Assembly: GCA_044892525.1 (NCBI GenBank)
Contig: CM097887.1
Span: 128,194,397-128,258,396 of the forward strand
DNA: 64,000 nucleotides
Reading direction: 5' to 3'
Source: Schmidtea polychroa
Lineage: Eukaryota
Shown here: positions 2,407 through 63,744 of the stretch, one piece after another
How positions within the stretch are numbered: position 1 is the stretch's first letter
Layout: each line of letters starts with the position of its first letter
Made by a program: the position numbers and the translations under genes
The notes under the pieces: model-generated
What the model was told of the DNA's origin: nothing
What the model saw: the letters and a program-made list of their open reading frames with translations, nothing else
Database searches by the model: none

Positions 2407-3375
2407 TGTTGGGTTTTCAGTAAATTTAAGTCGGTAACCTCTGACTCCTTGTGTCCATTAAATCAAAACAATAAACGACCCAACGTATATTGAAATCAAA
2501 AATATATTTTCTCTCAATAATACACAATCAATAATAAATAGTCCAACAGTTCTAGTTTGACCGATTCTCCGCTCGGTGTTGATGCTTTGATAAAGATAAT
2601 ATTCACCTTTTTTTTCCTTAGGTTCTCTTGTCCAACGTTTTCTTTTTTCTCTTTGATTTGATCCTTTTTCACCCTTTCTATTCTTATTTTATCTCTTCTT
2701 TTTCCCTAATCTCCTAATTTCGTTTTTACCTTTTCCTAAGCTCGATCTCTTCTAACTCTAGCTGAGGCAAAATGCCTATTTGCTCTGATTTTCCCATTCC
2801 TTATATACTCTCCGAAATCAGGATGACAAATGATTATTGCCGAGTCAATCTCTCACTTGACATTCGCTTCCACATAATTGCTTTCTACACGCACTATCTT
2901 TTCCTTGCTCAAAATTGATCATTGTGTCAAGCTAATGGGCCCAAATCTTCCGTCTGTTTACTTTTCTTCTTGTTTACCCAGTTCGGGTTTCCTTCATATC
3001 TCGGGTTCTCCATTGGCTCGGGTTTACCATTAGCTCGGGTTTTCTATTAGCCAATTAATTAATTAATTAATATTTTCTGTTTTTACACATTTGAATGCTT
3101 TTCGACCCTTTCTAACCATTTTCTGATAAATCCCTAATCATCATCTTGTTGACCATTAGCTACTCTATTCCCCATTCGATTTCGATGATTCTTCAATTTA
3201 TTGATTTTTCTCGGATTTCCGGATTCTTGCCTTTCGTAACTGCTTTTTGCCATTTCCTAATACTGTTTCCATCGTACTTTCCTTTACTATCAATTCTGTG
3301 CATGATCACGCTTTTATTTGTCTTTTTTCTTCACTTTTTATTTAAATTACCAACCTAAATTTACGGACCTCAACA
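2407..3375 (-). mobile_element. Solo LTR (Ty3/gypsy-type family 1)
   Basis: TGTTGGG...CCTCAACA ends, ATAC duplicated on both flanks (2403-2406, 3376-3379), colinear similarity to 30168-31557. Confidence 0.9.
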
Positions 3376-4467: not shown

Positions 4468-5220
4468 TGTAAAACTCAGTCGTATATCATCCCATGGACA
4501 AAATAGGCAATTATCTGGGCCCAAACCAACAAATGTCTCTAAAACAATTTTCTAGTCATTAAAATATTGTATCCAGCAGGCCACAGCTTAAGGGACACTA
4601 GTTGTTCCTCTTGCGAGTAGGTCAGCTGGCTTTTCAGATTCACGCGGCTTGATCGGGCCATAATATGGGGGCTTCTCCACTGGTCTGTCGCCGTAAGTAT
4701 TTCTATTGGAGTATTAGAATAAGTATTAAAATTAGAAATTAGAATTAGAAATACAGGCAGATCCATGCTCAAATTTTTTGAAAAATAATTTAAATATTAT
4801 GGGAAGTGTGGATTAACTTGGAAATAAGGGCCGATCCCTCCTCAAATTTTTTGGAAGATAGGTTAAATATTCATAAATATCAAGGAAAATACCTAGCAAT
4901 ATTTATTAATAGAAAAATAAGGGCGCATTCCTGCGCAAAATATTAAAAGAGAATAATTGGAATACACATAATTGAGGACGACAAATAATCTAAAAACAGC
5001 ATACATAGTGAATAATGACGTAAGACCTTCTATCGGCTGTCTAGAACCCGAAGAGAAAAGAACCTGATCATTGTTTTTTCGCCCATGTGTACAGTACCAA
5101 CATGGTCGTCGCCATGGGCACACAAATGGTTTAAAGTACAATAGTTATGGAGGTGCTTAGGAAAGAGTCGATTGAATACCTATGATTACCCCTAACGTAT
5201 TTAAACTTTAAAATGACACA
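4468..5220. repeat. Fragment of the ORF-X-associated repeat family (non-coding motifs only)
   Basis: 4577-4692 matches 20538-20649; 5017-5105 matches 19898-20012 and the reverse complement of 7130-7245. Confidence 0.6.
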
Positions 5221-5311
5221 TCCCTAAGTAACCAACAGAGTTAACAAAAGACGAAAATTTAATAAGAAAAATTCATTTGACAAGAAATAAAGTTTACCAT
5301 CGTTGGGGATG

Positions 5312-6991
5312 CAGGGCCGGTGCTAGACTTTTTGCTGCCACAGGCAAGATTTGTTTTGCCGCCCTACGGTCTAGTGAAAAAAAGTAAAAAACAGTTTTCT
5401 TATGAACTATAAAACATAAATACTACGAGTAGAAGAACTAAGTACAATAACAAAAACACAGATTTAATTGTTAATTATTCATTTGCAAATACACAACAAA
5501 AAAGCAAATTTTTAATAAATAAAATTACCTTAAACTTTAAATTTTGTTGTTTTATTTCAAATCGATGACCTTTAAACAAATAAAAAAAACTTTTACTTTC
5601 TTTAGCCACTATTAACTAACTTATACAAAATAAATAGTGGTATAGAAAAAATTGGACACCTTAATTTACTAGTCGTTTAATAAAGTTTAAAATTTTCTTC
5701 TTGCTTTTATATTTGCAAAATCTCGTAGTATATCTTTTTTATCTATTGCTCTCGAAATATCATTTTCAATGGACAAAATAGTTAGCCCAGAGAGTCGGTT
5801 TTGTGACATGGATGACCTCAAATAGTTTTTTATTAATTTTAGACGAGAAAAACTCCTTCCGCTAGCAACACTAACTGGCATTGTTAATAATTTTTTTAGT
5901 GCAATATACAAATTTGGATAGATTGGCTCATTCTGCAAAATATATTTCAAAACATCGTTTGGATCATCTGATGGTTTCAGCAAACTTGAAATAAATATTA
6001 ATTCTTCCGACAGTTGAATACCGTCAATGTCTTTTTTATTACCATCGCTCAGTATAATTTCTAAATCCTTCCAATACTTTAAAATATCTTCTTTCTTCCA
6101 TGTAGTTAATTTTGAAATGGAATGTAAGAATCCAAATGTATTTTTATAATGACAGCTGTTGGAAAAGTTACTCCATTGAGTCTAAAAAATAAAAATAAAC
6201 AAGTTTAAATTTTTGTGTTGAATCTTCCATTGGTTCATCAGTGGCTTCGTATTCAAAATTCCGTTTTCGTTTTTTAATTCGAATTTCCTCAAATCTGGGT
6301 TCCAAATCAATCATTTCTGCTAATTCACTAGCAGTAATAAAAAGGTTTTGAAACTCTTCGTCGGTTCTGAACTTTTCAAATTATTAAAAACGGACTCAAT
6401 TGTTTCCACTGCGGCACAAATAGAAAATGTTGGATTCTGCATTAGAAGATTCACTCTATTAACTTCTAATAACACATTGTACCAAAGCACTGCAGTACAA
6501 ATAAATAGATAACTTTTCAATTTTTGGGCCATAATGACAGAGAAAAATTCTGCGTTTTTTACCATTTCAATAATCTTGTTTTTCGACTTTTGAGCTAATA
6601 ATTCTACAAATTCATTTTGAATATCTTTGCTCAGGTAATGTACGTTAGCTTTTTTAGAAGTTATTCGACGTAGGTGTTCTTTTATAACAGGATCGCATAG
6701 ACCAAAGCATTCGACAAACTTTAAGAAAACCCCATTATTATTTTCCTATATCGCATCAGATGACCAACGAAATGATAAATTAAGTTCAGCCATTGTCAAA
6801 ATAATTTGCGTCACTCTTTCAAAAAACGTCACGCCAATGTTGTTTTTCATTCTTCAAAAGCCGTTCATATTCTGCATTGATAGTTTTATTTAATCGTTAA
6901 GCTCGGAACAATCATTAAATGATCTTAAGTGGAAGAATTTTTTATCATGATTATTAATGGCATGGATCAAAATTTTCCAATCATTATAGCC
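5312..6991 (-). mobile_element. Degenerate hAT transposon (ZMYM1-like transposase, internally deleted)
   Basis: CAGGGCCGG terminus at 5312; dimerisation domain LLTMPVSVASG-RSFSRLKLIKNYLRSSMSQNRL; N-terminal part GYNDWK...HYLSKDIQNEF with the catalytic core missing. Confidence 0.85.
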
Positions 6992-7496
6992 TGTGCTGGG
7001 GTGCTACTCGGTTGACTCCGATAAAACCTTTCGATTCACGTCTAGAGGATGGTGGTCTCTTACATTAACATATTTCGCATTTCTGCCAACCTCTCTCTCA
7101 CGACATAATACCCATGAATTGCTCCATGTTGGTACTGTATTATGTCGGCGAGACCTGAGAAAACAGGTGAGCCCCTGATTTAGGACTACTCTTTCCTGAA
7201 GACTCGACTTTTCCTTCTCGGACGGCCGATAGAAGGTCTTACGTCTTCACTACTCCCCCTTTGATCTCGACTCGCTACCCTTCTCTGAGTTCGTTGCCCG
7301 GAATTATCAGATTCAGAGATTATAGTAATTAAGACAATTTCTTCACGATAGGAGAAAAGAAAACACTGAACGAAAACGTTTATTGATCGACTTACACACT
7401 TAACCGTCGACACAACAAAAGAAAAACATTTGACTACATAATGTTGATCACAAAATTCATGACTATTCAGAGGTTATCCTACTCAAGGGTATCGTT

Positions 7497-8253
7497 TCAT
7501 TTCTCACGGTCGGCTTCCGCAAATAAGGCCTCTAAATTGAAAGATTCGGAATCGTTCTCTTTCCAAGTTGTACCAGCAGCTGAGATGATCCGACACTGCA
7601 TCCCAGTGTTCACAGTTGACATGGGAGCAACGCTACTATTCGCCTGCTCAATGGGTGCGACGCGTTTCTGTTCCTTTTCGATAGCTCGCTCCTTCTGCTT
7701 TTTCTTACGCTCTGCTCGAGATAGCTGTCGTCGCTTGGGCTTTGATGATGGATTGGTAGTATAGGATATGCTGGGTGTTGGGACAATTTTGGGCTTCACT
7801 CTACTGGTGCCCGTGAAAACGACTTCATTGGAATTAGGCGAGAGTTCCGCCTCTACACAACCCTTGACAAGACTTCTCCGAGGTTCGAGGTCTATTCGGG
7901 GTTTGGTCATGATGGGTAGGGAACACATTATCTTCCTCGGTTATTGGTATAGTCACGATCTTTCGAGTAATCGACGCCTGTAGGTACACTTTGTGTAGAG
8001 CTTCTGACTGCTCCTTGATGAGAAGCCGCTGCGATCTACTTTCGGCGATTAGACTATCGCGGCAATGTTCGCTCCGGAATAACTTCTTCCAGACCTCTTT
8101 CATTTGAGCAGGGTTGAACCAAATACTCTCTAGTTCCTCAATTTCCCGTTTGAGCGTTTCAACTTGGACTTGAAGACCCTTAATGGCTGTGTTCTTCTCG
8201 GCACATGAGAAGCAAGGCTTGATCAAATTATGAGCATTGGAATTCATGGTCAC
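7497..8253 (-). pseudogene. ORF-X copy A (CxxC + coiled coil + basic NLS protein), one frameshift
   Basis: ORFs 7834..8253 and 7497..7928 join into a homologue of 18847..19611 (KPCFSCAEKN, EHCRDSL, QSEALHKVY, DNVFP). Confidence 0.8.
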
Positions 8254-8902
8254 GAGTTATAAAGGATAGAAGACATATAATGAACGATCATCTGTGATCT
8301 ACCTAATCCGTAGGTAAACCGAGCATAACAATAAATCATCTAATTGTCTTAAGTCTTACTCAATACGTTTTTGGTCGTTAGAGTTCAACCGATAAAATGG
8401 CGTCATCGGACCAGCAAAAGAAATTCACCCTCAGACGATCTACTAGACTTCGTTATTGATATCCTGACCTAAACGCAATACTGTATCTAAAGTAAGGGTC
8501 GCCCAAAAAAATGATGACACTGTTAGAAAGCTTTACCTCTGTGCCTTGTAGAAAAAATGGAATATACACAAATGTAACAATGAAATTCATTTTTGTTACT
8601 GCTTGATGATTAATAGATACTTGTAATTGTTGTAATAAGTCAAAATAAGTATGAATAGAAGTTAAGAAATCGACTGTTGATTTGAATTTATTTCTTTTTA
8701 TAACTTGTAGCCTGTTTCATTATTTACAAACTCTATTATTATTTAACTAAAAGAAAAATTACAAACATTAATAGTGTAGTAAGTGTAGTTGTTTGATCAA
8801 TGTGAAAATCTCCAGGAAGAAGCGGATATAGTCGTATTTGTGAACTAAGCCGAAAGTGAATAAGAAATTAATCTAAGCGTTGGGCTACAAAGCATTTCTT
8901 TA

Positions 8903-9270
8903 CCGGTGCTGGAGTGCTGGAGTCTAATTTTTTTCCATTATTAGTAATTAGCAGTCAATGGGAGACCGCCATTGACTCCGATATTCGCGACGTGGATATT
9001 TTGCACAAAATAAACATTCAGTCCGTGCAAGTCAATGCGGCGCAGCTGCCCACAAAGAGACCACCGCGCCGACGACTCAGCATCGCGTGGAATCAAATGC
9101 AATGCTCTCCCTTCTAAATAATTCCCAGAACACTTTTTCCCGCGCGATATCTGAGTCGTTGGTAGTCCCTTTGTGGGTAGCTGCGCCGCGTTGTCTTGCT
9201 CGCCGAGAATATCGGAGTCGTTGGCGGTCCCCTAATCGAAATCGATAATCAAATTAGACTCCAGCACCGG
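8903..9270. mobile_element. Fold-back MITE-like element
   Basis: TIR (CCGG)TGCTGGAGTCTAATTT / AAATTAGACTCCAGCACCGG plus two further internal inverted blocks; TSD not clear. Confidence 0.75.
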
Positions 9271-9271
9271 A

Positions 9272-10160
9272 GTAGAACAAACTACATTTATTTTACGATA
9301 CGTCTCTGTAAATAATCATTCAGATGAATACGAAATTAAGGAACGATTTCTTGCATTTGTAAACTGCAATAAGAAGACTGGAGAAGATATTGCAAATTTA
9401 ATTCTCGAAACGCTTGAAAAATATTATATTCCTATAAGCGAATGTCGTGCACAAGGGTACGATAATGGATCCAATATGAGTGGCTCATATAAAGGTGCTC
9501 AAGCTCATATTTTGCAAATCAATCAACTGGCAATATTTTCCACTTGTGCATGTCATAGTTTAAATTTGTGTGGTGTTCATGCAGCAGAATCTTGTCATGA
9601 GGTTGTAACGTTTTTTGGTACGGTACAAAAATTATACATTATTTTTAGCAGTAGCCCTCAAAGATGGGAAATATTAAAAAATAATACTGGACGTTCAATA
9701 CACTCTATGTCAAATACACGTTGGTCTGCTAGAATTGAATGTATTAAACCAATTGCTGAAAATATTCCTGCAATAAAAAGTGCCATAGATTCTGTTCTAG
9801 AATTAAACTTAACATGGGAAATTCGTTCATATCTGAACGGAATAAAAAATATATGGAATCGTTTGAATTCTTAGTAATGGCTAAAATTTGATACAAAGTC
9901 CTTCAAGCTATAAATTATAGAAATATTGTTTTACAAGCTCGTGATGCGACAATTGATGTAAAAGTAGCGAATTTGTCAAGTCTTCTTGATGAATTACAAA
10001 CAATAAGAGATAGTTGGGAAACTCTCTTCAATGAATGTAAATTGTTTGGTTCAACTTTAGAGATAAATACAGATTTTGAAACAAAACGTAGTAAAAGGAA
10101 AAAATGGGGGAACGAATTAGAAATGACACCAAGTGACGAATTCAAAACAAATGTATCATT
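9272..10160 (+). pseudogene. hAT transposase catalytic-core remnant
   Basis: EQTTFILRYV...KERFLAF...RAQGYDNGSNMSG...CACHSLNL...TRWSAR; later frameshifted. Confidence 0.9.
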
Positions 10161-11499
10161 GATAGGCATTGGTCGCATGAGTGTAAAACCCGGATTTAGC
10201 ATTTATCCGGATTGAGGATCGATTTGTTGTGACACCTGGTAATTAACTGGTGATAGATTCACTGTCGTAACCGCTAGAGCCAGTGGTAACGAAAATTCAT
10301 GTAACTTATCTAAATTGTATTTTCCAGATGGTTTTTCACGAATTTATCTATGTGCCTTAACGATTACTCAAGCTGTCACTAGACAACGAGAGCGGGTTTT
10401 ATCTAACCAGTGAATGCCTATTTATGTGTATTATGTCATCTGGTTGTAAGCTTACTACTTGCTCGCAATCATGCTGGTAATATTCTGCTATCGTATTTTA
10501 CGTATATCTCGATATTTCAATTCATCTCTATTATCGGGCGTTTCGCAGGTCATTTACCGTGAATTTTTTATCGGTGCAGTTAATTATCATACTATCGTGG
10601 GATTCAGTGCCTGCTATGTGTATGTGACCTATTCGCTTACATGTAGGTTGATCAGTGTACTTTCGCATCAATGCTGTCTCTCGTGAGCGTATCGCACCTA
10701 ATTGGAATTACTATCGGATAATATCCCAAATTCACAAAAACCCACTCAGGATCTATGACGACCGCTCTATCTTACGGTGTTTCATATATTGTTGAAAAGG
10801 CAGAAAATATATCATCCCCGTGGGTAAATTCGATTAAGATCGTTGTTAATTAAATAAAAAATTTTTCATAAAGTATTTTGGAGTTATTTTTCTCGTCCTT
10901 TTCTCGAATGTTTGTATTATAATAATTATAAAATCGAGTCAATTTAATTTAAATAATAATGTGGAAATACAAATGGTAAAAAAGAAATACAGATTTTTAG
11001 TGAATTTTAAATGTTGATGTGGATTCAACTTGGCATGGTTTGCGCTGGTTTACTAGCTGAATGTAGATGTGTTTCGCAATGTCGTTATAATTTTTGAGAG
11101 TATTCCCTTATCGAATGCTGCACTGGCAGCAATCCAAGTTTTGAATTATCGAGTAGTTCTAGATGTAATTACTCATGATCGAATTTTGTTTCCAAAACGT
11201 ATGGTAAGAGGAATAGGTTAAAGCAACGAAATCGCGCAAGAAAATTTCGAGTTGAAAAACTAGTCAAAATCCGTTAGGGGACTTTTCACCAAGATCGTAC
11301 GTGGGAGCCTCAATCACTGTGCAGACCTACCCGTGGCACCTCATGCCGCCCCCTCATTCCGATGAAAATTTTGCTTTCAAACATCTCTTACTAGTTATAG
11401 TCCTCATTTCAAAAACAACATCTACCACACTTTTATTCATACCATCAGTGACAGACCCGTGGAGAAGCCTCCACATTTCGGCCCGAAATCAACTGCGTG

Positions 11500-12156
11500 A
11501 CTGAAGATGACCCCATACCCACCGGCTGAGCACCCGAAGGCCCCTCACACCATGGTAACGTGGAAAACAATGAAACACAAGAAAAGCATTATGACAGAAA
11601 ACTGGTAAAAAATGAAAGTGAGATTGAACCGAATATCAGGAGTAAGGTAAACTAGTACTGTAACAAATACCAACAAGGACACAATGACCACGATCAGTTT
11701 TTCGATGGGACGTATGAGAATCGTCAGAGAAATGAGCACAGAAAAAGGAAATATAGCCTCATAAAGGGGTGTTACAAATGTAAAAGAACGGAACACTTGA
11801 TTAATAACTGTCCAAATGTGACAAATGTGACAAACAATCAGTCGGATATTAGAAAATATCAACCTCCAATGTTAATAAAACAACAGTCGACAAATGTACA
11901 AAGACGGACAAATGATGTGAAAGAACATGTAAAACCTAACGTATTGGAAGAATTGAGAAAACAATGTATAGAACAGGATGAGATAATAAGAAAATTGGCT
12001 ATGAAAGAAACGAGACAAGATAAACTGATAATGATATGGAGAAAAGTGGCAGAAAACCAAGCAAGAGAAAACGAAGTAATTAAGACGACGATACTCAGAC
12101 TAAATGAAGAAGCAAGGTCAGCAGAATTAAGAATCAACGAAATAACGGAAAATTGA
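11500..12156 (+). pseudogene. Degenerate gag-like frame with CCHC zinc knuckle followed by coiled coil
   Basis: CYKCKRTEHLINNC (CX2CX4HX4C) at 11770-11811, in frame with ORF 11797..12156; upstream stops. Confidence 0.6.
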
Positions 12157-13050
12157 GAGAAATGTAAAGAATCGACAGTAGAGTCAAAAACGATTATGAA
12201 CAAGGGAAATGGAAATTAAAGAGGAAGTATAGAGAAAGTGTACATATGTAAAAATTTATGTATAAATAGCAAACGAAATGTATTAGACGTATATGTAGCA
12301 AAGGATTGATGTATATGTAATTAGAATGGAAAATGGATTAAGTAATCTGTAATGAAAATACTAAATGTGAACCCTTATAATCACAACCGAGAACAAAAGC
12401 CCGATTAATAAGAGAAAATATAAATTAAGAAGCGTGATATGAATTACAAACACAGAAGGATAATGAGTCAAACGAATCAGTCGAATTTGGAACACAAACG
12501 AAAATGATAAGTAGAGAAAAATTCCGAACCAAGAAGCAATGTCGTTAATCAAGTCACCAAGAAAAACAAAGAAATTCAGTGTATCAAATCATCCAGTTAA
12601 ACAGAGGTTCCGAAGACCCTTGAGCAAGGTCTGTCCAATCCCATCAGATGACAAACCAACCAGAATCACAGCCTCAGAAATTCCAAAAGAAAAAGAATCA
12701 AAGAAAATAGTCAAACTCTAATAAACAACCAAGTCGAAAGATTGAAAATCGAACTCAGAAACGAGTAGAAGACAACGAAAGAAACGACAAACTGCTGAAA
12801 TGATCCATAAATAAAACTTTTGGGTGTGACTTGTAATTAAATCTAAACACTATCAGTAGTTATGCGTATTATAACCAGTCAATGTATGTGGCAACTGCTT
12901 GAATTTTAGCTTAGACCTTTCTCTGATAATTGAATTCTAACATGTCTTAGACTACTATAATATGTCTGTAGGTTAATGGAAATGTAATAGGCAATGACTC
13001 GAAAAAGTCATATGTCTAACAGAATTGCGTTAGTTAACATCATGAAAATT

Positions 13051-13720
13051 GTAAAGAAGCGAGTAAATCTTCTGGAAGGCACATAGTTTGCCACGCCTTA
13101 AATGAAAGAGGCGACCAAAAAGATATTGTGGTTGGAGCACTGCCGAGACAGTCTTTGGAAGAAAACCGAAACTTAAAACCCACAATCAAGCCACTATCGG
13201 AGGCTCTACACCGTTTATAATCCCAAACGGAACTGAGGAAACGAGTGTCGGAATGAACTATTTACGACCGAGACAATGTTTTCCTTACGAATCATTTTCG
13301 CGACGATCGACAATCATCAATCAAGACTTCGTGTCTGAATCACAAGACGGAATCTCCTCTCCCTTCTGTATGTACGAGTGTAGTTCCACACAAAGTAGCA
13401 ATTTCAATGGTCGCCCCGCCGGTAGTTGAAAATCAATCAGTCACCGTTAGTACCAGTTTTCGTCCAAAGAGAAAACGGCTCACTCGCGCCGAACGCTCAA
13501 ACGCAAGCGGGACGAGATAGCCGCCGTGTTCTCATCTCTTCTATTAGCCCAGTCGGGGACAGCGGCGTTTCCAGAGATCACACAGCCGTGTTCCTTTAGA
13601 ATGGTGCCAGTAGCGGCAACTCCATTGGTTTATGACGCACAAATGGAAGCCGACCTCAACCTCATATTACAGGAAGTCGGTGACAGTGCGTTCTGGATTA
13701 CAGACAACTCTGCATCCTGA
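13051..13720 (+). pseudogene. ORF-X copy D (stops and frameshifts)
   Basis: KKRVNLLEGT*FATP*MKE...LEHCRDSL...SEALHR...DNVF...PKRKRLTRAER aligns with the other copies. Confidence 0.75.
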
Positions 13721-14395
13721 GAGTTGGAAATCTGTGCTGAGGTTTTGCAAACGATTTCTCCATCGATATTGACTGAACAAAACATTTCGAATGTGTAATT
13801 ATATCCGTCTGTTATGATATTCTGATATATTGATTGAAGAATGTGAAATGTGTTGTGGCGTTAATATGTATTTTATCGGTAATCTTGTTTTTGTTTGGTC
13901 TATTCTCGGAAGTGTTGTGATGAGGATAATCAGTAATATGAATGTGTAGGTTAGGGGTAAGGGTTAGGGTGTGAAGTTACGACATTTTTAATTCACTCTA
14001 CGAAATCGATAGCACTTATTCAGTTGCATGATTAGTTCATGGTCTAATCCTACTTAAATTATCCCTAGTACCTCTCAGATCTTTAGCACTACAGACAATT
14101 ATTGGAGGTGAATTTTCGCCATAGTAATTAACATAGTTTTTTAATACATTCTATGAATATTATAGCTTATTTCGGCATTAACTTGTGCATAAGGGCATAG
14201 CTGAATGATATTCATTGTAGATTGTTTATGTATTTTTTTTGGTTTATTCGGCCGACGCTTCATTGAGTTATCGATTTTAATTTTAAATCACTATTAAATT
14301 ATTGTGGGTTTATTTCACGCAAGGTTTTCTATTAAGGTGCTAGTTAGCAAAAATTTGCTTTTAATGAAAAATTAATGATGATATTGATTTTAAAA

Positions 14396-15157
14396 TTTTG
14401 GGGGTAAGTACTAAAACCTAAGAAATATATAAAAGAAAAGTATAACAAATATTGTTAAAGTCAATAAAAACCTCCTAACCAAAGTTCAAAATTAATTAAA
14501 ATTTACTAAAAATCGAAAATCAATACTGACTGGGAGAAACAGTTCTGGTTAAACGCCAAATTGAAAGAAAAATTCAGAATTTATAATAAAAATTTAATAA
14601 AGGGTTCACAGAAAAAGTTATAACTAAAAAACAAACAAATTAATTAATCCTTAATGGGAAACCCGAGCGTGAAGGAAAACCAAAGCGCATTGAGACACGA
14701 CTGAGTAGATAGGAAAGCGAACTCACCCGAGTGCCAATCCGGGGCAAACAAATTAGAATGATTCCACAGACTCAAAATATTTATCCGAAAGCTAATTGTT
14801 TATTATAATCCTAATTCTGATAATTGCCCTCACAGAAAAAGTATAAAAATAGTTCAAAAACAGACAAACTGCCAGTTGGTCGAAGGAACAAGAAAGAAAT
14901 CGAGTGAATAAGTCAATCAGTGATCATAAGACAAAATCTAGTAATTGAAAGCAATTTTAACTCTCTTACCAGAATAGGTGATAACTCCTTGGGTTTTTTA
15001 CCTTCGCGAACAATATTTATTGGTGAGAAAGGTGCAAATCTAGTGGCGAATTGTAATTTTGATTGAAGTCTAATAAAGTTATTTTGTGTTTCGATTATTT
15101 ATTTAATAAGAACACGATAAATCAGAGAAAATCGACTTGCAAAATAATAACCCAACA
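14396..15157 (+). mobile_element. Diverged LTR related to family 1
   Basis: Ends CCCAACA; 14600-14700 resembles the reverse complement of the GGTTTCCTTCA..CTCGGGTT..TTAATTAATT core of 2407-3375; left end degenerate. Confidence 0.5.
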
Positions 15158-18100
15158 AAATAATATTTTGTTGGGCTGAAATAAAAAATGAGATAACATA
15201 AGAAAAATCAAAGAAAAACACTAAGAAACAATACAAATATTGTAAATAAATCGGAAAAATAGATTAAAAATCAGAAAAATAAATTAAGAAACACAGTAAA
15301 TAGGTAATAATAAATTAAACATAGAGAATTAAAACAAAAAAGTCAAAATAAAAAAACCAAGATAGGAAAAACGAGAAAATAACATAAAAATCAAATAGTT
15401 AATAGGAAATTTAAGAAAATAAATAAAAATATAGGGGAAAAAATAAAGAAAAAGTAGGAAAATTAACGAAAATCAGAGAAATTAAATTAAAATAAATAAT
15501 TAAACGGCGCCTCAATTCTGATTGGCCCTCACATATTCATAATTAAGTATACAAGGGAACACTGAAATAAAATTTTCAGTGCTAACCCAACGCATTTACA
15601 GGTACGACTAGTGTTGGGCCAAGCTTCGAGAGTATTGCAAAACAGGATGAATAAAGGAGATAAAATAAATTTCACGAAAAGCACGAAAAATAAAAGAACA
15701 AATAAAATTAGATAAATATAACAGAAATAAAGGGAACAAAAATAACTAATGAAAATAATAAAAGACGAAAAATAAGATGAAAAAAAGAAAATAACACACC
15801 ACACATAATAGCAGAAGGAAATAAAATAATAAATTTAAGGAAAATAAACCAGAAATTGGGAAATAAAATAGAAATAAATCATTATCAAATAAATATATAA
15901 ACTAATTAAAACAAAAAATTATACTATAACCAAAAAACAATAAAGTCACAGGAAAAACAGGAGGGAAATAATAAAAAATAGAAAAATAAATAAAATAATA
16001 ATAAAAAATAAGAAAAAGTCATTAAGATATACCTTATTACATTAAAAACATAAAAATAATAATAAATAATAATATTACACGCAAGGCGCGTCCTGATTGG
16101 ACGGAAAATAATATAAAAGGAATGCGAAAAATCTGTAGAGTACCACTTTAACAAATACTCTACAGGTAAAAAATTTTCATTTTTTGATAAAGACCACTTT
16201 AACAAATACTCTACAGGACTAGATAGCAGCCTACCAAACCATTTAACCAAACTGCTCTACAAATTAGGATCTACGAGTCACACAGGAACTACTTAGCAAA
16301 CTTCATCAAACAGATTTACAGGGACTATACTTACGGAAAATTATTCATACAGCGATCGAGATTTCTGCGGAATATTAACACATTTACCTTGGAAAAGAAA
16401 ATCTAGACCTAAATTTTCAATACTCTCGAAGGAAACTTATCGTAAGTAGAATGAATATTTTGATTTATGATTTATAAAAACAAAAAATTGATTGAATGAA
16501 ATATTTTAATTTTTAATAAAAATTTATGATTACAATGATGTTCTCTCTCTCTATGCGGCTGGCGACGATGTCGTCTGGAAATCGGACATGATGCGGAGAC
16601 GTGAATAGATTTGCTAGGAGATACCCGAAGGCGAGCGATGAAAATAAAGACATTGAATTGAGAATTTGAATGAATGTGATCTCACTGGGAATGGAGAATG
16701 AAAGGCACGATAAAAATCCCGACGTTATATCATGTTCGAAGTTCAGACGGCGTGGTCGCCGGGTAAATAATTATTTTATATAATCATAATGTTCCAATAG
16801 GATTGAGTTGTCTGATGAATTATACTATTTATTTTTGATAATTATCTTTGATGGTGATGATGGAAATTAGATGAGATAGAATCGTCCTTCCTGGCGGTCC
16901 GAGAATGGCGGCAGCGATGCATGCTATTCTTGGGTGGGCCAGGAGGGGTGAGGATATCTGGGAATGGCGGAATGTGAGTGTAGGAACCGATCTTTTCATC
17001 GAGTGCGATCCACTTTTGAAATCATCGAAAATATTTCCAGTACTACGAGTTACGGCATTAAAGCTGAGGTGGGGGAATAATCCATAAGGAAATGCGTAAA
17101 ATTGGCAGATTCATAAAATGTAGACTTTATATCAAACTTTCCTCTTTCCGTCTCTTGATTAAAAATGATCCATGATTTAAATTTGTCCACGAATAGTGTC
17201 GAACTATCCAACCGACAGAGATCTATATTCGCGCGATGTCATCGACAAGATTTCATGAAAAATTGGTAAAGCTATAGTCTCATAAGGTGTGAATCCCTAG
17301 GATATTGGCGATGAAACCCATCTAAGATGTACTTTTAGACGGAATTATCAACTCTCGCACTGCTGATAAGCTTTAATTTTCTAGAAATAAAGTAAACAAC
17401 TTCCGAGGAATTATCAGAGTACTTACGGCCGATATGAAGGACACTGCTGTCAGGGTTATCAACTCAATGTTGAACGAAGTCCAGTCAGTTTCTGAGTAAT
17501 CGAATGAGACGACCAGCAAAAATCCACTACGAGAGATAAGGTGAAAATTTCTGAATTGATTTGTTAGTGGGCGTAACGACAGGAGTGCCCGAGCCCGCAA
17601 CACGATAACAGACGAATCGGCAATCCTAACTGATTAGTAATCTCCTACATCTATCATTTTCCATCTACGACAATCACCGCAGACACTATAGTAGGGAAAT
17701 TCTGAGTGACTCTGTTGTGAACACGCATGTAATTGTACACGCCACGATGAGATTTCTTCCAGTAGGGTGACGTCAAATTCGAACGGAGATGTATGTGATA
17801 TCATCATGATTGCGTAAGAATAGAAAATGTCACCGGAGATGTCGGACTGTGGGTAAGAGTAAAATAATGAACCGCGTCATCGTAGGGCAGTACGACATTG
17901 ATTCTGCTAGATTCGGATAAGTGAATAGTTACTCATAACAATCACAGATTTAGACACACAAACTCACCTGGTAGGGATGCATAATGATACGATAATACAC
18001 ACAGACAGGCGTCGTTATGACGACGATTTCCCGTGCATATTTTAAAATCATTTTATTTAAATTTGGATTACACTTTTCTATAATATATTTTCGAATATTC

Positions 18101-18846
18101 GCGTTGAATGAGAAATAATATCGCCCAATTAATAGGCACGAAACCGAAGGTAGCAGTGGGCTTAATTAAACTGATGAGTTAATGCCAGGTTTAAGAAGTT
18201 AAAGCTATAAATGAATTGCTAATGGAATATGATAAAAGCGACGAGATGAGATAAATATCGATAAGAATTTAGAATTAGAAATCCGAGATGTTAGGATTCA
18301 TCGTTGTAATTAAATCGGCTACAAACCCTTTTTCGTTTCCGATAATTTGATTTAGTGCAACGCCGGAAAACTTAGGTCACCTCCGATTATTAACTAACCT
18401 AAACCTCGAAAAATCGAACAAGAGGTGTAGCATGATATGATGGATTGTGAAAGGGAAAAAATCTTTTTTGTATATAATGTAGTTCAGTTTCATATATACA
18501 AAACGGATAGCTAGAATATTTTCAATGGCATAATAATACGAATTAGTGATGACATGATTAAAGGAAAGATTGCTCCCCCCGAGGATAAATTTAACATTTT
18601 TACTTGCGAATATGATAATGAAAAATGTTCCGTTTTCTTTTCCCCGAAAAACTGCTGTATGAATGAACTAGTTCGAATGTTTGGGGTTGAATGGATCGCG
18701 TCACGATCACTGGTACGTATGCGTGAGATTGGCTTTTATGTTTTTTGACTTTAATACGAGATTGATGGAATAAACTTCATGTCGTAAGAGTGTCACTGTC
18801 CCTATCATAATACCTGAGGTGCGAATATAAATGTCTTAATTTTTAG

Positions 18847-19611
18847 ATGACCACTCCAACTAAGCTCGGAAGTACTCTTCGACCTTGTTTTTCCTGTGCC
18901 GATAAAAATGCCGATATCGCACAGCTGCACTTATACATCGGGGAATTAAAGAAGAGAATTGACCTATACGAAGGGACGTGGTTCTCCCCACCACAAATGA
19001 AGGAAGAGAAGAGTAAAATTCTACGTTTGGAGCACTGCCGTGACAGTCTCCTGGAGGAGAGCAGATGCCAGAGGCTAACCATAAAAGCCCAATCAGAGGC
19101 ACTGCACAAAGTATATTCGGAATCCGAGATAGCGAAGCGAGTTCGCGAATACCCAATACAAGATGGGACTAACGTGTTCCCGGAACACCATCAATCCGCT
19201 GAAACCTCATCAACCACCAGTTGCAAGGGGCACGGCCTACAATTGCCACCAATTCCCGCCCCAGTTCTTTCTGGCTATCGGCCTATGGCTGGCGGTCCAT
19301 CGGACCCTATCTTGACTCCAGTCCTCGCGTCGCCACTCACTCAGCCTCCAGCAGGAGCCACTCTTCCACCTCGAAAGCGTAAGAGACCGACGCGCTCAGA
19401 GAAAAATCAGAAGCGCAGAAACGCCATGGCCGTGCTCGAAGCATCGTTATCTGCAGCCAAATCGACGATCAAGGAAATTACAATCAACCATTCTATCCCT
19501 ACGAAAGAAGTGATTCGGGTAGTTCCGGCCGACAGCATCAAATTCCTCGAAGATCGCCGGTTGCCCGTCGACATTGACGAAATGATCGCAGAAGGAGAAG
19601 TGTTTTCGTAA
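18847..19611 (+). CDS. ORF-X copy B, intact 254-aa protein of unknown function
   Basis: ATG-to-stop ORF: RPCFSC, heptad region, Pro/Ser/Thr linker, PPRKRKRPTRSEKNQKRR, acidic C-terminal helix. Confidence 0.75.
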   Translation: MTTPTKLGSTLRPCFSCADKNADIAQLHLYIGELKKRIDLYEGTWFSPPQMKEEKSKILRLEHCRDSLLEESRCQRLTIKAQSEALHKVYSESEIAKRVREYPIQDGTNVFPEHHQSAETSSTTSCKGHGLQLPPIPAPVLSGYRPMAGGPSDPILTPVLASPLTQPPAGATLPPRKRKRPTRSEKNQKRRNAMAVLEASLSAAKSTIKEITINHSIPTKEVIRVVPADSIKFLEDRRLPVDIDEMIAEGEVFS

Positions 19612-21421
19612 TGAATTTTTTTTTTTTATTTGCCTCAATCTTTGGGCGGTATGAAGGAACTCGGAGAAGTTGACGTTATCCTGTACATGACCTTTGATGT
19701 TTTGTTCTTATTTAATTAATGGTGAATGTATCTTTATGTTTCACTTTAATACAACTGTTCGAAGTCTTTGATTTTTTCCATGGTATGTGTGATTTGCTGT
19801 GGTTGATTTGAGTAAAAGGTACTCCTGGAGACATAGTACGAGCGCAAATGTCGTCCCTTTGGACCAGGGTCGGACTGAATTAAGAGCGAAGAAACGGGTA
19901 AGACCTTCTATGGCACCATGGAACCCGAACCGAGAAAGGGTTAGGAGTAGTCCTAAGGCAGGGGCTCACCTGCTAACCTTTTCCAACCCGTGTGAGCAGC
20001 ACCAACGTGGAACACCACCACGGGCTCATACGTGGGAATATGTATTTGATCATTTTGGAGTATGTATGGGAAGTATCGGAGCGGAAGAGAGTACTTGGGA
20101 TGTATGATAATCAGGTGTGCATATTTTTCTCTTTCCCCACATACGCCAACACTAGCAAATATTCAAGGACAAACTCGATAGCAGCCGATAATTCAAGAAA
20201 TCACTCGGGAATATCAAGAATTCATACTTTTCAGCAGCTATTTTATTTCAACAACTAACGGAAAAGTAAATTTTTGCATTGGTTTATGTCTGTATTGCTA
20301 TGAATAATTTGCATTAAATTAAATTTAATAACGGATTCGTGTTCTTTTGATCACAATAATATAATTTTCAAGTTAATCTTATTTTTATTTAATCGAATAA
20401 ATTATGAGTAAATAAACGGATAAAGTAGGATTAGAATTTTATTTTTTATGAATATGACGAAGGAATGCTATTGAAATAATGATGCATATTTTGAATGATT
20501 TTGATATGTGTTCCACGACACTGAGGTTCAGCTGGCCACAGCTCGAGCGACACTAGTTGTTCCTCTTGCCAGTAGGTCGGATGATTCTTCAGCATCGTAG
20601 TGGCTGGGATCGGGTCATTTGTGGGGGTTTCTCCACTGATCTGTCGCCACAGGAGATGAATGATAAATACTCTAAAGGAGAGAAAGAAGCCACTGTAAAT
20701 GATTTTTGGCAATCACTAATATTATCGTTTATGTTAATGAACACTCGCAATGACTGAGGGAGCCTGAAAATTCATGATTTTCTCAATAACCAACTCTCGT
20801 TTTCGTTTACCTAAGGACTTTATTGCAAGAGGTGTCAATTTTCATCACAACAGATCTTGAGAGAATTACGCTTAGTATCGATTTACCTAACTCCAAGTTC
20901 GTGGTAGGATCCGTCACAAACCTTGTTCATAAGGCCTTAACGTCGACCTAGAGATTCCATGCGAAGATGCAGCAATTTTTCTCTGAAAACCTGATTTTCA
21001 TGATCCAACTTTAAGGAGGTAAATAATTAGTCAAGTCATGTCGTTTTGAGCCCATCATAGGCGGTGCTATATAATTTCTCAGACAGATTTAATGATAGAT
21101 GGTATCTCTAGACAATGATATCTAATAAAGTCAAGTTTCACCTTTTGCGTAACCACTCAGACAACTACAACACGGATGAACGATTTTTTTCTCCTCTTCG
21201 CGACGACTAGACGATAATGGTAGTTGAATTAAACCGACGAAGGGGGTCGACGACAGATTAGCCTCTTAAATTTTCATTCTACCACGGAGTTCTCTAAAAA
21301 TATCAGATGGCGTAAGTAATAGACTTCGGGTGATCCAAATATAATGGTGTGTAGAGACATGTTGTATTGACGATTCAGAGGAATAAGGAAACGCCATAAG
21401 TATCAATTTATAGTATGAAGC

Positions 21422-22096
21422 ATGACTTTAATACATACGTTGGATTTATTTAAGAATGTCAAAACCCCAGCAACCACAACCATCGTACGGCCATGCTTCT
21501 CATGTGCCGATAAGAATGTCTTAATCAAAACGCTCCAGACGCAGATCGGTCTCTTGAAGAAAAAATCTGATTATCTGGAAGGTATCTATTTTTCCCCAGC
21601 ATAAATGAAGGAGGAACGGCTGAAACTAACACGCGTAGAACGATGTCGAAATGACCTGATTGAAGAGAGCCGCGCGTTGCGAGCTCTGATTAAAGAACAG
21701 TAAGAGGCGTTGCACAAAGTCTACGTGCAGGCGTCTATCACGAAGAAGATCGTCAACATCCCCATCACAGAGGAGGATAATGTATTCCCGCATCTTCACT
21801 GTCAATCAATTTGCTTGGAAAATCAACAAATTAGACAGGTATTGGTAGCACCGACGCCCCCCTGCCATCTACCTCATCCGACGTCGTTTTCACCAGCATC
21901 AGTCAAGCGGCTCCAAAAGCAATCAGTGTATCAGCATCGGTCACTCTCCCAGTGGCGCCAAAGACTACTAAGCGCCGGCAACCGACTCGGGCCAAGCGAA
22001 CAAAGAAACGAAAGGCTCTCCAAGCCGAAAATAAGGCGAAGCTGGTTGCCGAAGTCACGCAGAAGCTCCCGGCATCGCAGGCAGAGGTGATATCTC
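21422..22096 (+). pseudogene. ORF-X copy C (two stops, frameshift, 3' truncated against an LTR fragment)
   Basis: RPCFSCADKN...EALHKVYVQASITKKIVNIPITEEDNVFP...KRRQPTRAKR. Confidence 0.8.
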
Positions 22097-22253
22097 GCTT
22101 TTGGCATTTCCCAATACTGCTTCCATCACACTTTTCTTTGCTATCAATTCTGTGCATGATCACGCTTTTATTTATCTTTTTCTTCACTTACTTTTTATTT
22201 AAATTATTAACCTAAATTTCATTTAAATTTATTTTAATTTACGGACCTCGACA
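22097..22253 (-). repeat. Truncated 3' LTR (first ~157 bp)
   Basis: Begins TGTCGAGGTCC on minus, preceded by purine-rich AAATGGGTAGATA (possible PPT); near-identical to the 5' LTR. Confidence 0.75.
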
Positions 22254-23003
22254 TATCTACCCATTTAAAAAAATATTTCGTCCTTGAAATACATGTTTTT
22301 AGACCTCTTCGAAAATTTACAATATTTTATTTAAGATTTTATTTATTTTAACATCATTTTCCTGATAAAATTTCCGACCGAATCAATTCTTTTTAATTTG
22401 GCTCTAATTATTTCGACCATTTTAATTTGGCTAGTAAATAATAATAATAAATATAAACAATATCAACAAAAATCATAAGCATATGGAAAACAAATGGTTT
22501 GCATTATATTTTATGCAACGTCATAATGAGAAGAAATTTGTTAGAAAAAGAATTCTATATATAAACATTATTTCATGAAAAGTACATCTGCACGAGATCA
22601 GTATCAAATATCAAACGTAATTGATCCGTTCGAAATTTTAGTAAAATATAAATCAGGGTAGTGTTAAATAAAATTTCTAACATTTTCACGAAACATCATA
22701 ATATTAATAATAACTTATTTATCTGTGAATGGACTCGTCGAAAGAAATTGGAAATCTTCAAACCGAATTTAATAAATAATGAATGGCGAATATTAGCTTA
22801 TTGATTCTTTTATTTGCAATAACTGACTTTATATTTATGCCGATAAATATTATGACCAATTAATCTATTTGATGTAACGGGATATTGATTATTATCATAT
22901 TATTATAATATTTATTTTAATAATGATAATTAAAAATTATTACCAATAAGTAAATGAAAATTGAAATTTAAAAAACATTTAAAACTAAATGAATTTGGTT
23001 TAA

Positions 23004-25392
23004 CACTAGGACGGCCGGAAATATTTTATACCTTGGAAGGCCAAACCGGTCAATTTGACCGGTGCACATATGCTCCTTATTTTCATGCTGAGATTTCTAT
23101 GATGCAACTCATTTAGCAATACTTTCTTTGTGCTACTAACACGCTTTCAAAATTTAACTATTTTTATTCTAACAGTAGTTAATTTATTAAACTACTTACA
23201 ACAATGAAATAAAAATATTTGTTTAGCTGACACAAAGCTACACTATTTTAAACATTGTCTTCGCGTTTATTCAGACTGGTATGTATGTATACTTCATTTC
23301 TTGTTTATAAATATTCTCTTGCTTTTATTCAAAGATAGTGCTTATTAAAAGTGTAATTAAGCAAGCATTAAGAGTTCTAAGTTTTGAAATTTGGTAAATT
23401 AAAAGAATCAAACGAAAAACTTAACGAAATGTCATAAGACAATATCTAATAATTGTTATAGAAAATCTTTGAACTTCTTGGGATAACAAACATTATATAA
23501 CCGTGTTTTCATTAGAATTCAATAATAAATTTGACGTTTCTTATTTTACTGACGGAGTTTTTATCATTATTTGATGATGAGCCCGAAAGAAATGATTCTG
23601 ACGAAGAGTTACATGAATGGAACTCTGATGATAATGGAAGTTCGTTAGAAAGTGACAATGAGTCATTCAATAGCTCAATTTCTTCATTAGAAAATCAGCT
23701 TTTATCTAGCAGGGATGGCACTCTTTGGAATCGAGTAGAAAACAATCACGCTATTAGTGTTGGCAGATTCCCTGCGCACAATATTTTTAGTGGAACACCT
23801 GGTTTGAAAGCTTTTGCAAAGCGCTTGATAGTCTCTGAGGGAATGCTGAAGTTAATTCAAAAATACACAATTATGAAAGGAAAAGAAGCTTCGTCAGACT
23901 GGTGTATCAGTCTACAAGAATTAGATGCTTTTCTTGGATTGCTGTATCTCCGTGGTGTGTTAGGCTTTCGCCGACATTCTATCAATTCAATCTGGTCATC
24001 TCAATTTGGATCTCCTTACTTCAGAGAAGTCATGTCTCGGAACCGTTTCCGTGAGATACTGCGCTTTCTTCGTTTTGATGAACAATGTTCTCGACGTCAA
24101 AGAGTAGAACAAGATAAATATGCCCATTTTCGTGAAATATTTGACTTGTTTGTTTCAAACTGTCTTCAAGTTTATACTCCTAATCCCTTCCTTACTGTCG
24201 ATGAGCAACTTTTGCCGCTAAAAAATAGGTGTTGCTTCATCCAATTTATGCCAAATAAGCCTGATAAATTCGGTATCAAATACTGGATTCTCAGTGATGT
24301 CAAAACCAAATTTGTCATCAATCAAATGCCATATTTAGGGGCTCACGATAGAAACGAACGCTGTGGATTACGGCTGGGTGATTTTGTAGTCAGGAAACTA
24401 ATGGAGCCATTTTTCAATAAAGGATACAATGTCTGCACTGACAATTTCTTTACAAGTCTCTCACTAGCTGAACATCTCCTTGTAAATCGAACAACATTGG
24501 TTGGTACTGTAAGATTAAATTCACGCTTTTTATCATCAGCTCACTTGGAGAAAAAGCCTCTTTTTGAATCGACTCATTTATCGTGTCAAAACACTGTCAC
24601 TGTTTCCTATCAAGGCAAATCGGACAAGAAAGTCATTGTCATGTCAACATTCTATTCTACTGCTAGTGTGAGATCTGACGAAAAGAGAAAGCCTGAAATG
24701 ATACACTTTTATAACAAAAATAAGACAGCTGTAGATACCATGGATAGCATGTTGCGTTTATACAGCAGTAAGGCCGCAACAGCAAGATGGCCAGTCGCTA
24801 CTTTCTATGATTTGCTTGATAAAGCAGCTCTCAACGCTCATGTTATTTTCAAAGATGCTACGGGATCAACTATAAAAAGAAGGGATTTTATTTTTGAATT
24901 AGCTACATCTCTCTGTGAGGAGTTCAAAAGCCGTCGAACAGCAAGTCCCATCTCTGGTGAACTCTGTTCTGAACAACCAAAATTAAACAAGCGAAAAACT
25001 TGTTCTGCTCCTCATTGTGATAACAAATCCGGAGCTATATGCCATGTATGTAGTAAAGTTTACTGTGGAAAACATTCCCAAATGACTGTTAAATGCTTCG
25101 GTTGTGTGTAAATTATATTTGGTTTTATATTTTCTAGTATGTAAGATGATTATGTGTGACTTTCTTGTGTGTTTCAAGATACCGGTCAAATTGATCGGTT
25201 CGGCCTTCCATGGGGATGGCCTCATTATCTCAGTCGTGACAAATGCTATAATTGAAGCTTTGATATGCACAACAAGTTCACTAAAAATGAATAATTGTCA
25301 CAAAATATGAGACGTTAATTCCTTTTCGTTTTCTCACAAAATAAAAATGAAATTGCTTAACGGTCAAAATGACCGCTCTGGCCGTCCTAGTG
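23004..25392 (+). mobile_element. Full-length piggyBac transposon
   Basis: 13-bp TIR CACTAGGACGGCC/GGCCGTCCTAGTG, TTAA on both sides (23000-23003, 25393-25396), subterminal CGGTCAA(T/A)TGA(C/T)CG palindromes. Confidence 0.97.
23531..25111 (+). CDS. piggyBac transposase
   Basis: LTVDEQL, CTDNFFTS, VDTMDSM (DDD triad) and C-terminal Cys-rich domain. True start uncertain (TTG; possible splice acceptor at 23514-23515). Confidence 0.95.
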   Translation: MTFLILLTEFLSLFDDEPERNDSDEELHEWNSDDNGSSLESDNESFNSSISSLENQLLSSRDGTLWNRVENNHAISVGRFPAHNIFSGTPGLKAFAKRLIVSEGMLKLIQKYTIMKGKEASSDWCISLQELDAFLGLLYLRGVLGFRRHSINSIWSSQFGSPYFREVMSRNRFREILRFLRFDEQCSRRQRVEQDKYAHFREIFDLFVSNCLQVYTPNPFLTVDEQLLPLKNRCCFIQFMPNKPDKFGIKYWILSDVKTKFVINQMPYLGAHDRNERCGLRLGDFVVRKLMEPFFNKGYNVCTDNFFTSLSLAEHLLVNRTTLVGTVRLNSRFLSSAHLEKKPLFESTHLSCQNTVTVSYQGKSDKKVIVMSTFYSTASVRSDEKRKPEMIHFYNKNKTAVDTMDSMLRLYSSKAATARWPVATFYDLLDKAALNAHVIFKDATGSTIKRRDFIFELATSLCEEFKSRRTASPISGELCSEQPKLNKRKTCSAPHCDNKSGAICHVCSKVYCGKHSQMTVKCFGCV

Positions 25393-27197: not shown

Positions 27198-27904
27198 TTA
27201 CAATTCCGTAACTAAACTTTGTAATATTCGCTCAGTTTTGCTTGATTCGTCTAAACTCAAAGATTCAGTTTCCGCATCATTTTGTCGTTTCCGACATATC
27301 GCAATGTCATTTTCCGTTTCAACGAAGTTCTCTTCACTTTTTGTTTTATTTACACTCGGTAATACCCTGTTATCGGTGCTCATTTCCTCGATATCCCTTT
27401 TAGCTTCATTTTCCGATCCCATTTCCTCATTTTCCATTGTTTCTAATCTCTGCAATTCATTAATTTCTTGATCAATTTCTCCTGGGTCATCTACAACTTC
27501 AGTTTTAATCTCTACATTATCATTATACGTTTCCTCATACGGAGGCCAAACGGTATTATTACTGCATCTCTTTCCATTTCATCACTTTGCTTTGTTGCGT
27601 ATACATTATTAATACAATTTGGGTTACATCAGTAATTCAATAAATATTCGTCATCATCTAATTCTCGTGCTTTGAACGTCAACACGATAATTCCTTCATT
27701 GCGTAATATCTCATCTGCTTTTTGTCGTATTTTCTTTGCTTTTACACTCCAATGTTCCTGATAATATTCAATCCTTTGATCCGCAATATTCAACGCTATT
27801 ATCAACGACTTCGCACTATTGTCTAACACCCCATAATCATGTCCTAGTTTTCGGATTACCTTTTTGAGCTTCGCCTGATAGCTTGTCGGTTTATTAGTAT
27901 ACAA
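27198..27904 (-). pseudogene. Helical and acidic linker segments between the UBL and Bcl-2-like domains
   Basis: ORFs 27629..27904 and 27198..27455 on the same strand, separated by stops and frameshifts. Confidence 0.45.
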
Positions 27905-28361: not shown

Positions 28362-28464
28362 ATAAATTTATTGCTCTCTTTAGTTCACTTTGGGTTAGTG
28401 ACATCAAACTGAGTTCTGCGATCCATCGTTTCAAATGGGAGTTGTTAGTTTCCATTCTCGCAAG

Positions 28465-29851: not shown

Positions 29852-30142
29852 TTTAAGCTAAACTTCAAACGTTCAACAATAATTCAAAATTACTTTTCAG
29901 CTTCTTTTAAATCTTCCAATAATAGCCTTTAATATCTATCTCGTCAGCACTATTTTCCAAAAATTTTCCACTACGTTCAATAATTCTCAACCGACTTCAC
30001 GTCTATACTCTTTTTCCAAATATTTTTGCAATAACTTTCAATAATTCTCTGCCGACTTTCAATCACGTCGGTATTATTTTCCAAATACTTTTTTTTAATA
30101 ATTTTTTCCCACTAACTTTCAATAATTCTCCGCCGACTTCCT

Positions 30143-30160
30143 ATCACGTCGGGCTCACCA
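30143..30160 (-). promoter_or_regulatory. Primer binding site complementary to the tRNA-Trp 3' end
   Basis: TGGTGAGCCCGACGTGAT, 7 nt after the LTR end. The plus strand ATCACGTCGGGCTCACCA matches the metazoan tRNA-Trp 3' end (ATCACGTCGGGGTCACCA, recalled) at 17/18. Confidence 0.85.
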
Positions 30161-30167
30161 GAATATA

Positions 30168-63736: not shown

Positions 63737-63744
63737 TTTAATAA

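Follow-up and report, generated by a model that had tools for sequence, protein, structure and literature searches.

The giant gypsy-like long terminal repeat (LTR) elements of planarians, known as Burro or GYPSM1 (Jurka 2007; Grohme et al. 2018), have been reviewed in PMC6431247, and the available part of the review text names no LTR gene, splice scheme or RNA element. According to excerpts of two further papers, Burro1 is PIWI controlled and kept down by SMEDWI-2 (PMC8532177), and, second-hand, its IAP region has been reported to protect stem cells and Burro1 to aid regeneration (PMC13465017). Here we analyzed a stretch of 64,000 nucleotides from Schmidtea polychroa (the window; GenBank assembly GCA_044892525.1, contig CM097887.1, forward-strand positions 128,194,397 to 128,258,396), in which an initial annotation had noticed four copies of an unassigned protein, ORF-X, and had attributed them to an undescribed element. 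ORF-X is almost certainly a gene inside the LTR of Burro-type giant Ty3/Gypsy elements. The attribution to an undescribed element was not borne out, as the carrier belongs to the known Burro/GYPSM1 group, to which it was matched by the architecture as described. It resembles the elements described in PMC6431247 in its length of about 30 kb, its long LTRs, a Gag with CCHC knuckles, an Env in frame between Gag and protease (PR), the series of PR, reverse transcriptase (RT), RNase H (RH) and integrase (IN), the ankyrin and MATH/TRAF cargo, and its thousands of candidate matches.

Carrier element of ORF-X

A search of the species' own genome (G000) with the N-terminal 133 amino acids of ORF-X gave 6546 candidates, which are first-look matches and not a copy number. 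Among the 150 best genome rows, 48 formed 24 same-strand pairs at a spacing of 26.0 to 26.7 kb (counted by hand). The three paired loci examined were all bounded by twin repeats that are 98.7 to 100% identical and carry ORF-X in both. Three of seven further candidate pairs, from diverged subfamilies, were also twin LTRs (3.7 to 3.9 kb); the other four, from older subfamilies, were rejected. ORF-X was found in both LTRs of six full elements, and the long copies with RT that the initial annotation had suggested looking for do exist, with ORF-X in twin LTRs around gag-env-pol. The C1 element is 30.6 kb long, with LTRs of about 4.17 kb (3.7 to 4.5 kb in the subfamilies examined), TG...CA ends, a 4-bp target duplication and a primer-binding site (PBS). 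Between its LTRs it has open reading frames (ORFs) for Gag, a fusion-glycoprotein Env, protease, RT, RNase H, integrase, ankyrin and RING/MATH proteins. The same internal domains were detected by Pfam in a second element, whose ORF-X is about 35% identical to copy 3 of the window. The Pfam results for these two elements fit the Gag-Env-PR-RT-RH-IN order, with Env within the polyprotein, that is described in PMC6431247, and ankyrin, MATH/TRAF and RING cargo was detected in both; BIR and BCL2-like motifs were not reported by Pfam in either (E ≤ 0.01 for one, E ≤ 0.001 for the other). Unlike in the description of Burro/GYPSM1 (PMC6431247), the elements examined here have MATH/TRAF as an ORF of its own further downstream. 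The PBS matches the host tRNA-Pro, and self-priming was dropped as a possibility because of this match. At G000:C1:130899509-130903480 (L158-L160), tRNA-Pro(TGG) genes are repeated in tandem every 475 bp, and the 3' end of the primer has 2164 matches in the genome.

ORF-X lies on the LTR sense strand, about 540 nt upstream of the LTR 3' end. When copy 3 (18847..19611, plus strand) was used as the tblastn query, the other three copies were recovered at E values of 3e-35, 1e-31 and 8e-18, far beyond chance, with no further significant match within the 64-kb window, so that the claim of four diverged copies within 15 kb was upheld. Only copy 3 has an open frame. Its LTR is a Burro-type solo LTR of 4540 bp with TG...CA ends (15612..20151, plus strand), which is flanked by the 4-bp target duplication CTAG (15608-15611 and 20152-20155) and shares 95 to 97% identity with stretches from the LTRs of a full element (L036, L037, L040). 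This solo LTR is nested inside an older LTR of another subfamily (15169..22099, plus strand), which holds copy 4 (21456..22099, plus strand). The older LTR starts at 15169 with the same 5' terminus motif as other subfamilies, resumes at 20152 beyond the insertion and is cut at about 22099 by another repeat; colinear matches to L093, L094, L096 and L058 flank the insertion on either side. Copy 4, which begins at 21456, contains frameshifts and two stops and lacks its 3' end; its DNA relatives are 70 to 91% identical. The repeat that truncates it is a piece of a minus-strand LTR-like family with gag-like CCHC ORFs (2407-3344, 22097-22256 and 27198-31557).

Copy 1 (7497..8247, minus strand) starts at 8247 and is full length, but a single frameshift interrupts it near codon 128 and its acceptor is degraded. 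It lies in an LTR remnant of a third subfamily (6994..11558, minus strand), the 3' end of which is at 6994 and the 5' end of which was not located, and which has a donor-like motif and the RNA element at 7101-7250 (nhmmer E 5.6e-40). A hAT fragment interrupts this LTR at about 8773-10209; further hAT transposase sequence lies at 5687-6745, and 9236-9871 matches DUF4371. Copy 2 (13051-13720, plus strand) is 5'-truncated, lacking its first ~33 codons, and contains stops and frameshifts; it belongs to an LTR fragment of a fourth subfamily (13052..13951, plus strand), likewise 5'-truncated. LTR ends and the RNA element were not found beside this copy; its relative L151 has the donor and the hairpin anchor. 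A fragment of another repeat family abuts copy 2 (11649-13029, with a CCHC knuckle ORF at 11656-12156) and has no match to Burro internal ORFs. Copies 1, 2 and 4 are thus broken remnants, which were assigned through protein homology, LTR termini and the shared 3' RNA element, and no complete element was found for the subfamilies nearest to them. As the copies in the window are solo LTRs or fragments, the lack of Burro internal genes there (tblastn with seven internal ORFs, no match at E ≤ 0.01) is expected. An upstream LTR block of about 115 nt is 78 to 89% conserved between otherwise diverged subfamilies (11445-11558, 20529-20648 and 4574-4692) and is a candidate enhancer, ORF-X target or RNA element. 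In an old repeat remnant without ORF-X (4741-5237), positions 5006-5117 weakly match the LTR RNA element (E 6e-07).

The carrier is already known, and provisionally the LTR-encoded ORF-X appears to be new. Our literature search, made on search listings, gave no account of an LTR gene in Burro, and the available part of PMC11410931 has nothing on LTR genes; Jurka 2007, Grohme 2018 and Lee 2026, including figures and supplements, may already show the ORF.

Protein family and selection

The intact copy 3 encodes 254 amino acids, with a CxxC motif and helices at 15-43 and 48-101, followed by a variable linker, an Arg/Lys-rich helix at about 175-200 and an acidic-hydrophobic tail. In the structure model (mean pLDDT 64, pTM 0.36), helices 15-43, 48-101 and 183-214 are confident and the linkers disordered. 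Most of the conserved motifs listed in the initial annotation were recovered: (R/K)PCFSCA(D/E)KN is present in three of the four copies and NVF in all of them. EHCRDSL and SEALH(K/R) are also found in three, copy 4 having variants, one with a stop. RxxxTR(A/S)E occurs literally in two copies, copies 1 and 4 having only close variants, and the proposed heptad coiled coil holds for the first helix (hydrophobic a/d fraction of 0.57 to 0.86 in the best register, three sequences). The basic helix and the acidic tail are kept in all four subfamilies, the last 25 residues containing 6 to 9 acidic and 2 to 5 aromatic residues (nine sequences); a nuclear-import-type patch and an activation-type tail are thereby present by composition and conservation only. 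The tail has a presumed likeness to viral activation domains. A nuclear export signal (NES) was found in the last 45 residues of none of 45 sequences with six CRM1-type patterns, which atypical signals may escape.

The description of ORF-X as an unassigned protein family agrees with all searches. Copy 3 matched no Pfam family, and the aligned members gave only scattered weak coiled-coil matches (at most 5 of 33). Protein word searches limited to near lengths gave nothing at E ≤ 0.001 or E ≤ 0.01, and the PDB sequence search returned no match. Foldseek, which the initial annotation had proposed for the copy-3 protein, found no fold at E ≤ 0.001 in PDB and viral libraries. The best VIA-align result (Z 10.5, residues 9-106) concerned generic helical hairpins only, and the best ESM Atlas score (0.88) belonged to an unnamed protein, with bZIP at 0.78 to 0.82, in the chance range. 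None of 321 pattern matches in metagenome contigs was confirmed, and there was no profile match above the family threshold to LINE ORF1, DIRS gag, env or a host family such as bZIP.

When 1.84 billion proteins were searched with a profile, 15 distant homologues (P0002-P0016) were obtained. Twelve of them are joined to unrelated Pfam domains, which differ between homologues, and the 10 that were looked up are single-member clusters. These proteins look like gene models that run through solo LTRs and not like a host family, and would reflect either real exonization of solo LTRs or a prediction artefact. They keep the helical core, and eight of the 15 have an NRRRRERR-type patch that is more Arg-rich than that of ORF-X. 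A zinc site is not claimed for ORF-X because CxxC is missing from the six distant homologues aligned.

To describe the selection on ORF-X, 67 distinct ORFs were extracted, of which 22 were dropped as truncated or masked and the remaining 45 intact ones compared pairwise. The ratio of non-synonymous to synonymous rates (dN/dS) was 0.11 to 0.16 overall and 0.04 to 0.08 in the core in bins with dS of 0.1 to 2.0, a binning that omits the 723 of 990 pairs that are saturated at synonymous sites. Five chosen unsaturated pairs gave 0.10 to 0.16 (Fisher p 4e-22 or lower) and 0.02 to 0.07 in the core; in these pairs the linker is the freest region (0.15 to 0.34), and the basic patch and tail are constrained. 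The changes in ORF-X fall mostly at third codon positions. The tree of ORF-X is a quick version that serves only to show the subfamilies. A dN/dS near 1, named at the outset as the outcome that would speak against a conserved family, did not occur between subfamilies. The twin LTR copies of one element differ by no synonymous and four non-synonymous changes, as expected for neutral decay after insertion, although the numbers are small. Taken together, the decayed copies in the window and the neutral twin-LTR changes indicate that selection acts during element replication. The purifying selection that was proposed therefore exists in replicating subfamilies, but not on the four copies in place, three of which are decayed.

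LTR signals and the possible function of ORF-X

Several signals surround ORF-X in the LTR. A splice-acceptor-like site, consisting of a pyrimidine tract and TAG, lies directly before the ATG of copy 3 (18832..18846, plus strand) and is presumably used as such. A pyrimidine tract with YAG at most 16 nt from the ATG was found in 44 of 45 intact ORFs, compared with 69 of 1303 background ATGs, and it persists across subfamilies whose upstream DNA is barely alignable. Downstream, a hexamer that may serve as a poly(A) signal (19748..19753, plus strand) is followed by a putative splice donor, GTAAG (19898..19902, plus strand), about 250 nt before the LTR 3' end. GTAAG is present in 42 of 42 copies in which the downstream anchor was found (45 examined), and a hexamer 135 to 195 nt before it in 39 of 42 copies, compared with 0 to 5 of 42 in seven other 60-nt windows. 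YAG also occurs 0 to 6 nt before 12 of 13 internal accessory ORF starts, compared with 114 of 2183 ATGs; the 13 starts represent five ORF types in three elements and were chosen among up to three Met codons each. The accessory ORFs with YAG are a RING ORF after the PBS, a RING-MATH ORF and three coiled-coil or membrane ORFs (G000:C1:17514626-17536835, L032-L034; L081-L086). Spliced-leader trans-splicing occurs in flatworms, and the internal YAGs may reflect either alternative cis-splicing or such trans-splicing. In the simplest reading of these motifs, U3 would contain ORF-X and U5 a single donor that would be spliced alternatively; other possible layouts have an extended R region, an LTR-internal intron or trans-splicing.

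Beyond the donor-like motif, on its intron side, two conserved RNA hairpins with asymmetric, invariant internal loops are predicted (19930..20040, plus strand), with support from covariation. The folding z score of copy 3 was -4.25 in the sense and -0.80 in the antisense direction. That of the copy-1 hairpins was only -1.72, for a tested segment that cuts the second hairpin. In an alignment of the second group (18 related copies), 98.5% of the cells pair and 13 of 40 pairs have compensatory changes, which exceeds all 500 shuffles and the 2 to 6 given by slid controls, the structure having been derived from the same alignment. The number of further pair types was not above shuffles (56/500). 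The topology recurs in the first group, and when both groups are taken together 10 of 18 pairs covary. Rfam found no match to the hairpins at four loci, only AT-repeat artefacts. The hairpins may be a packaging signal or a target of ORF-X.

We tentatively favor the interpretation that ORF-X encodes a nuclear transactivator, which would be translated from a spliced mRNA and act on the promoter of its own element. With the foamy-virus Tas feedback loop as a model (PMC3185757, in part), the start of transcription would lie close to the end of the 5' LTR, and a single donor would be spliced to one of several acceptors, one before each accessory ORF. The last acceptor would lie before ORF-X in the U3 of the 3' LTR, making the ORF-X mRNA the most spliced. 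The helical core would oligomerize, nuclear import and the contact with nucleic acid would fall to the Arg-rich helix, and host co-activators would be recruited by the acidic-aromatic tail, resulting in a positive loop on the element's own promoter, as with Tas or lentiviral Tat. The nuclear regulator of the initial annotation fits the element anatomy and the protein features in this respect, but indirectly and not by demonstration. Several points weigh against a transactivator. The transcript, start site, splice junctions and protein are all deduced from DNA, and the motif counts overstate the support because related copies are not independent. The pTM of the model is low, and no sequence or fold link was found to Tas, Tat, Tax or any DNA-binding domain in Pfam, PDB sequences and three fold searches, although the absence of a fold match leaves room for homology, given a low-confidence helical model. 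The sole hint of a named family is to Rev and not to an activator (Pfam REV, E 0.0013, below the cut-off, in P0006, one of the 15 distant homologues). The hairpins lie 30 to 140 nt past the donor, far from the position of a trans-activation response (TAR)-like element if R is short. Tas uses an internal promoter in env and binds U3 DNA motifs (excerpt of PMC3185757), whereas the Burro U3 is poorly conserved between subfamilies. Finally, the snakehead retrovirus has a 3' ORF that had been regarded as a Tat and turned out not to be one (PMC12193657, in part), so that transactivator guesses of this kind can fail.

The main alternative, conceivable though in our view doubtful, is that ORF-X is a post-transcriptional regulator of the Rev/Rex kind, which would bind the hairpins and either favor export of the ~27-kb genomic RNA or prevent its splicing; lying past the donor, the hairpins would be present in unspliced RNA only. 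The multi-acceptor layout would create the need for such a factor, and hairpins that covary, have invariant asymmetric loops and follow the donor-like motif on its intron side would suit it. The Arg-rich helix and oligomer-type core correspond to two of Rev's three modules (PMC10746203, partial text), and the weak REV match of P0006 points the same way. However, none of the 33 aligned members matches REV, no CRM1-type NES pattern is found in the C-terminal 45 residues, the NES-like matches elsewhere are confined to the coiled coil and are uninformative because its heptads yield them anyway, and the hairpins may merely be a packaging or dimerization signal bound by Gag. A host-directed role, with chromatin, PIWI silencing or cell survival as the target in place of the Burro promoter and in line with other host-modulating cargo of the element, seems unlikely: Burro cargo, as described, includes RING, MATH/TRAF, ankyrin, BIR and BCL2-like proteins, and the control by SMEDWI-2 (PMC8532177) and the second-hand report on the IAP region (PMC13465017), both from excerpts, would be in keeping with it, but neither Pfam nor the profile search found a host-derived domain in ORF-X, and the core evolves slowly, unlike an arms-race surface. 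Still less probable is a particle or pre-integration-complex protein, a scaffold or nuclear-import helper that does not regulate expression. Its helical-hairpin core is a common scaffold shape and its basic patch could bind genomic RNA or cDNA; against this, ORF-X is a separate far-3' gene with its own acceptor, outside Gag, and the acidic-aromatic tail would better suit activators. The idea of an independent undescribed non-autonomous element, a host gene family or a captured host gene fragment has been largely refuted. No RT, transposase or recombinase of the carrier was found in the window, and none of the four candidate pairs from the subfamilies nearest copies 1, 2 and 4 proved to be twin LTRs, but the same gene lies in both LTRs of six full elements, Burro LTR termini are retained in copies 1 and 4, copy 1 still has the RNA element, and the differing domain fusions and single-member clusters of the distant homologues speak against a host family.

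Neighboring elements and comparison with retroviral regulators

The remainder of the window holds a piggyBac-type element (23031-25213), whose ends are inverted and whose 531-aa transposase frame is open, and host gene pieces at 36109-38109, comprising a 420-aa exon on the plus strand with a weak harmonin N-domain match and a minus-strand exon that we take to be HscB-like. At 58741-63760 a 1434-aa ORF faces a convergent 206-aa ORF; Pfam gave only an N-terminal zinc finger, and we presume the large ORF to be a protein-primed polymerase of the Polinton/Maverick type. Similar ORFs are present in L089/L090.

Burro is abundant, PIWI controlled and reported to support planarian stem cells. With the gene lying within the LTR, and in the rather unlikely case of the Tat/Rev-like circuit considered below, thousands of solo LTRs would spread the regulator, the acceptor and the RNA target through the planarian genome, and the dispersed ORF-X genes, acceptors and RNA targets could act on host transcripts. 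For annotation, we caution that host gene models seem to incorporate solo LTRs that have a strong acceptor. A conserved regulator, a candidate RNA target and an explicit splice model together make the control of Burro directly testable by long reads and RNA interference.

The domain layout of foamy-virus Tas, a basic patch and an acidic C-terminal part, is the same as that of ORF-X. Both are 3'-encoded accessory proteins of a similar size class, and in both systems the donor, putative in Burro, lies inside the LTR (Tas/Bel1 in the available part of PMC3185757). In contrast, no homology between them was found, Burro belongs to Ty3/Gypsy and not to Retroviridae, and ORF-X lies wholly in the LTR. 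With Rev of human immunodeficiency virus (HIV), Rex from human T-cell leukemia virus, Rec of human endogenous retrovirus K and Rem of mouse mammary tumor virus (MMTV), ORF-X shares an Arg-rich helix and a likely oligomerization core, and Burro would share a structured RNA element in the same genome and several acceptors (PMC10746203, in part). Unlike these proteins, ORF-X has a tail without an NES pattern and about twice the size, and the similarity to REV is below the cut-off and confined to one of the 15 distant homologues.

MMTV sag and HIV nef are genes in or overlapping U3, which are duplicated with the LTR and spliced from the 3' copy, and their products are membrane-associated host modulators. 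ORF-X is unrelated to Sag and Nef in sequence and looks nuclear. Like these two genes and the snakehead 3' ORF (PMC12193657, excerpt), it is duplicated together with the LTR and would lie in or overlap U3 and be spliced from the 3' copy.

Our literature search, made on search listings, gave no report of a dedicated regulatory protein with an RNA or DNA target in Ty3/Gypsy elements. Such proteins are a hallmark of complex retroviruses. It is a possibility, which we hold to be rather unlikely, that Burro has the control circuit of a complex retrovirus outside Retroviridae, in which many acceptors share one donor and a Tat/Rev-like protein encoded in the LTR binds the structured RNA of that LTR.

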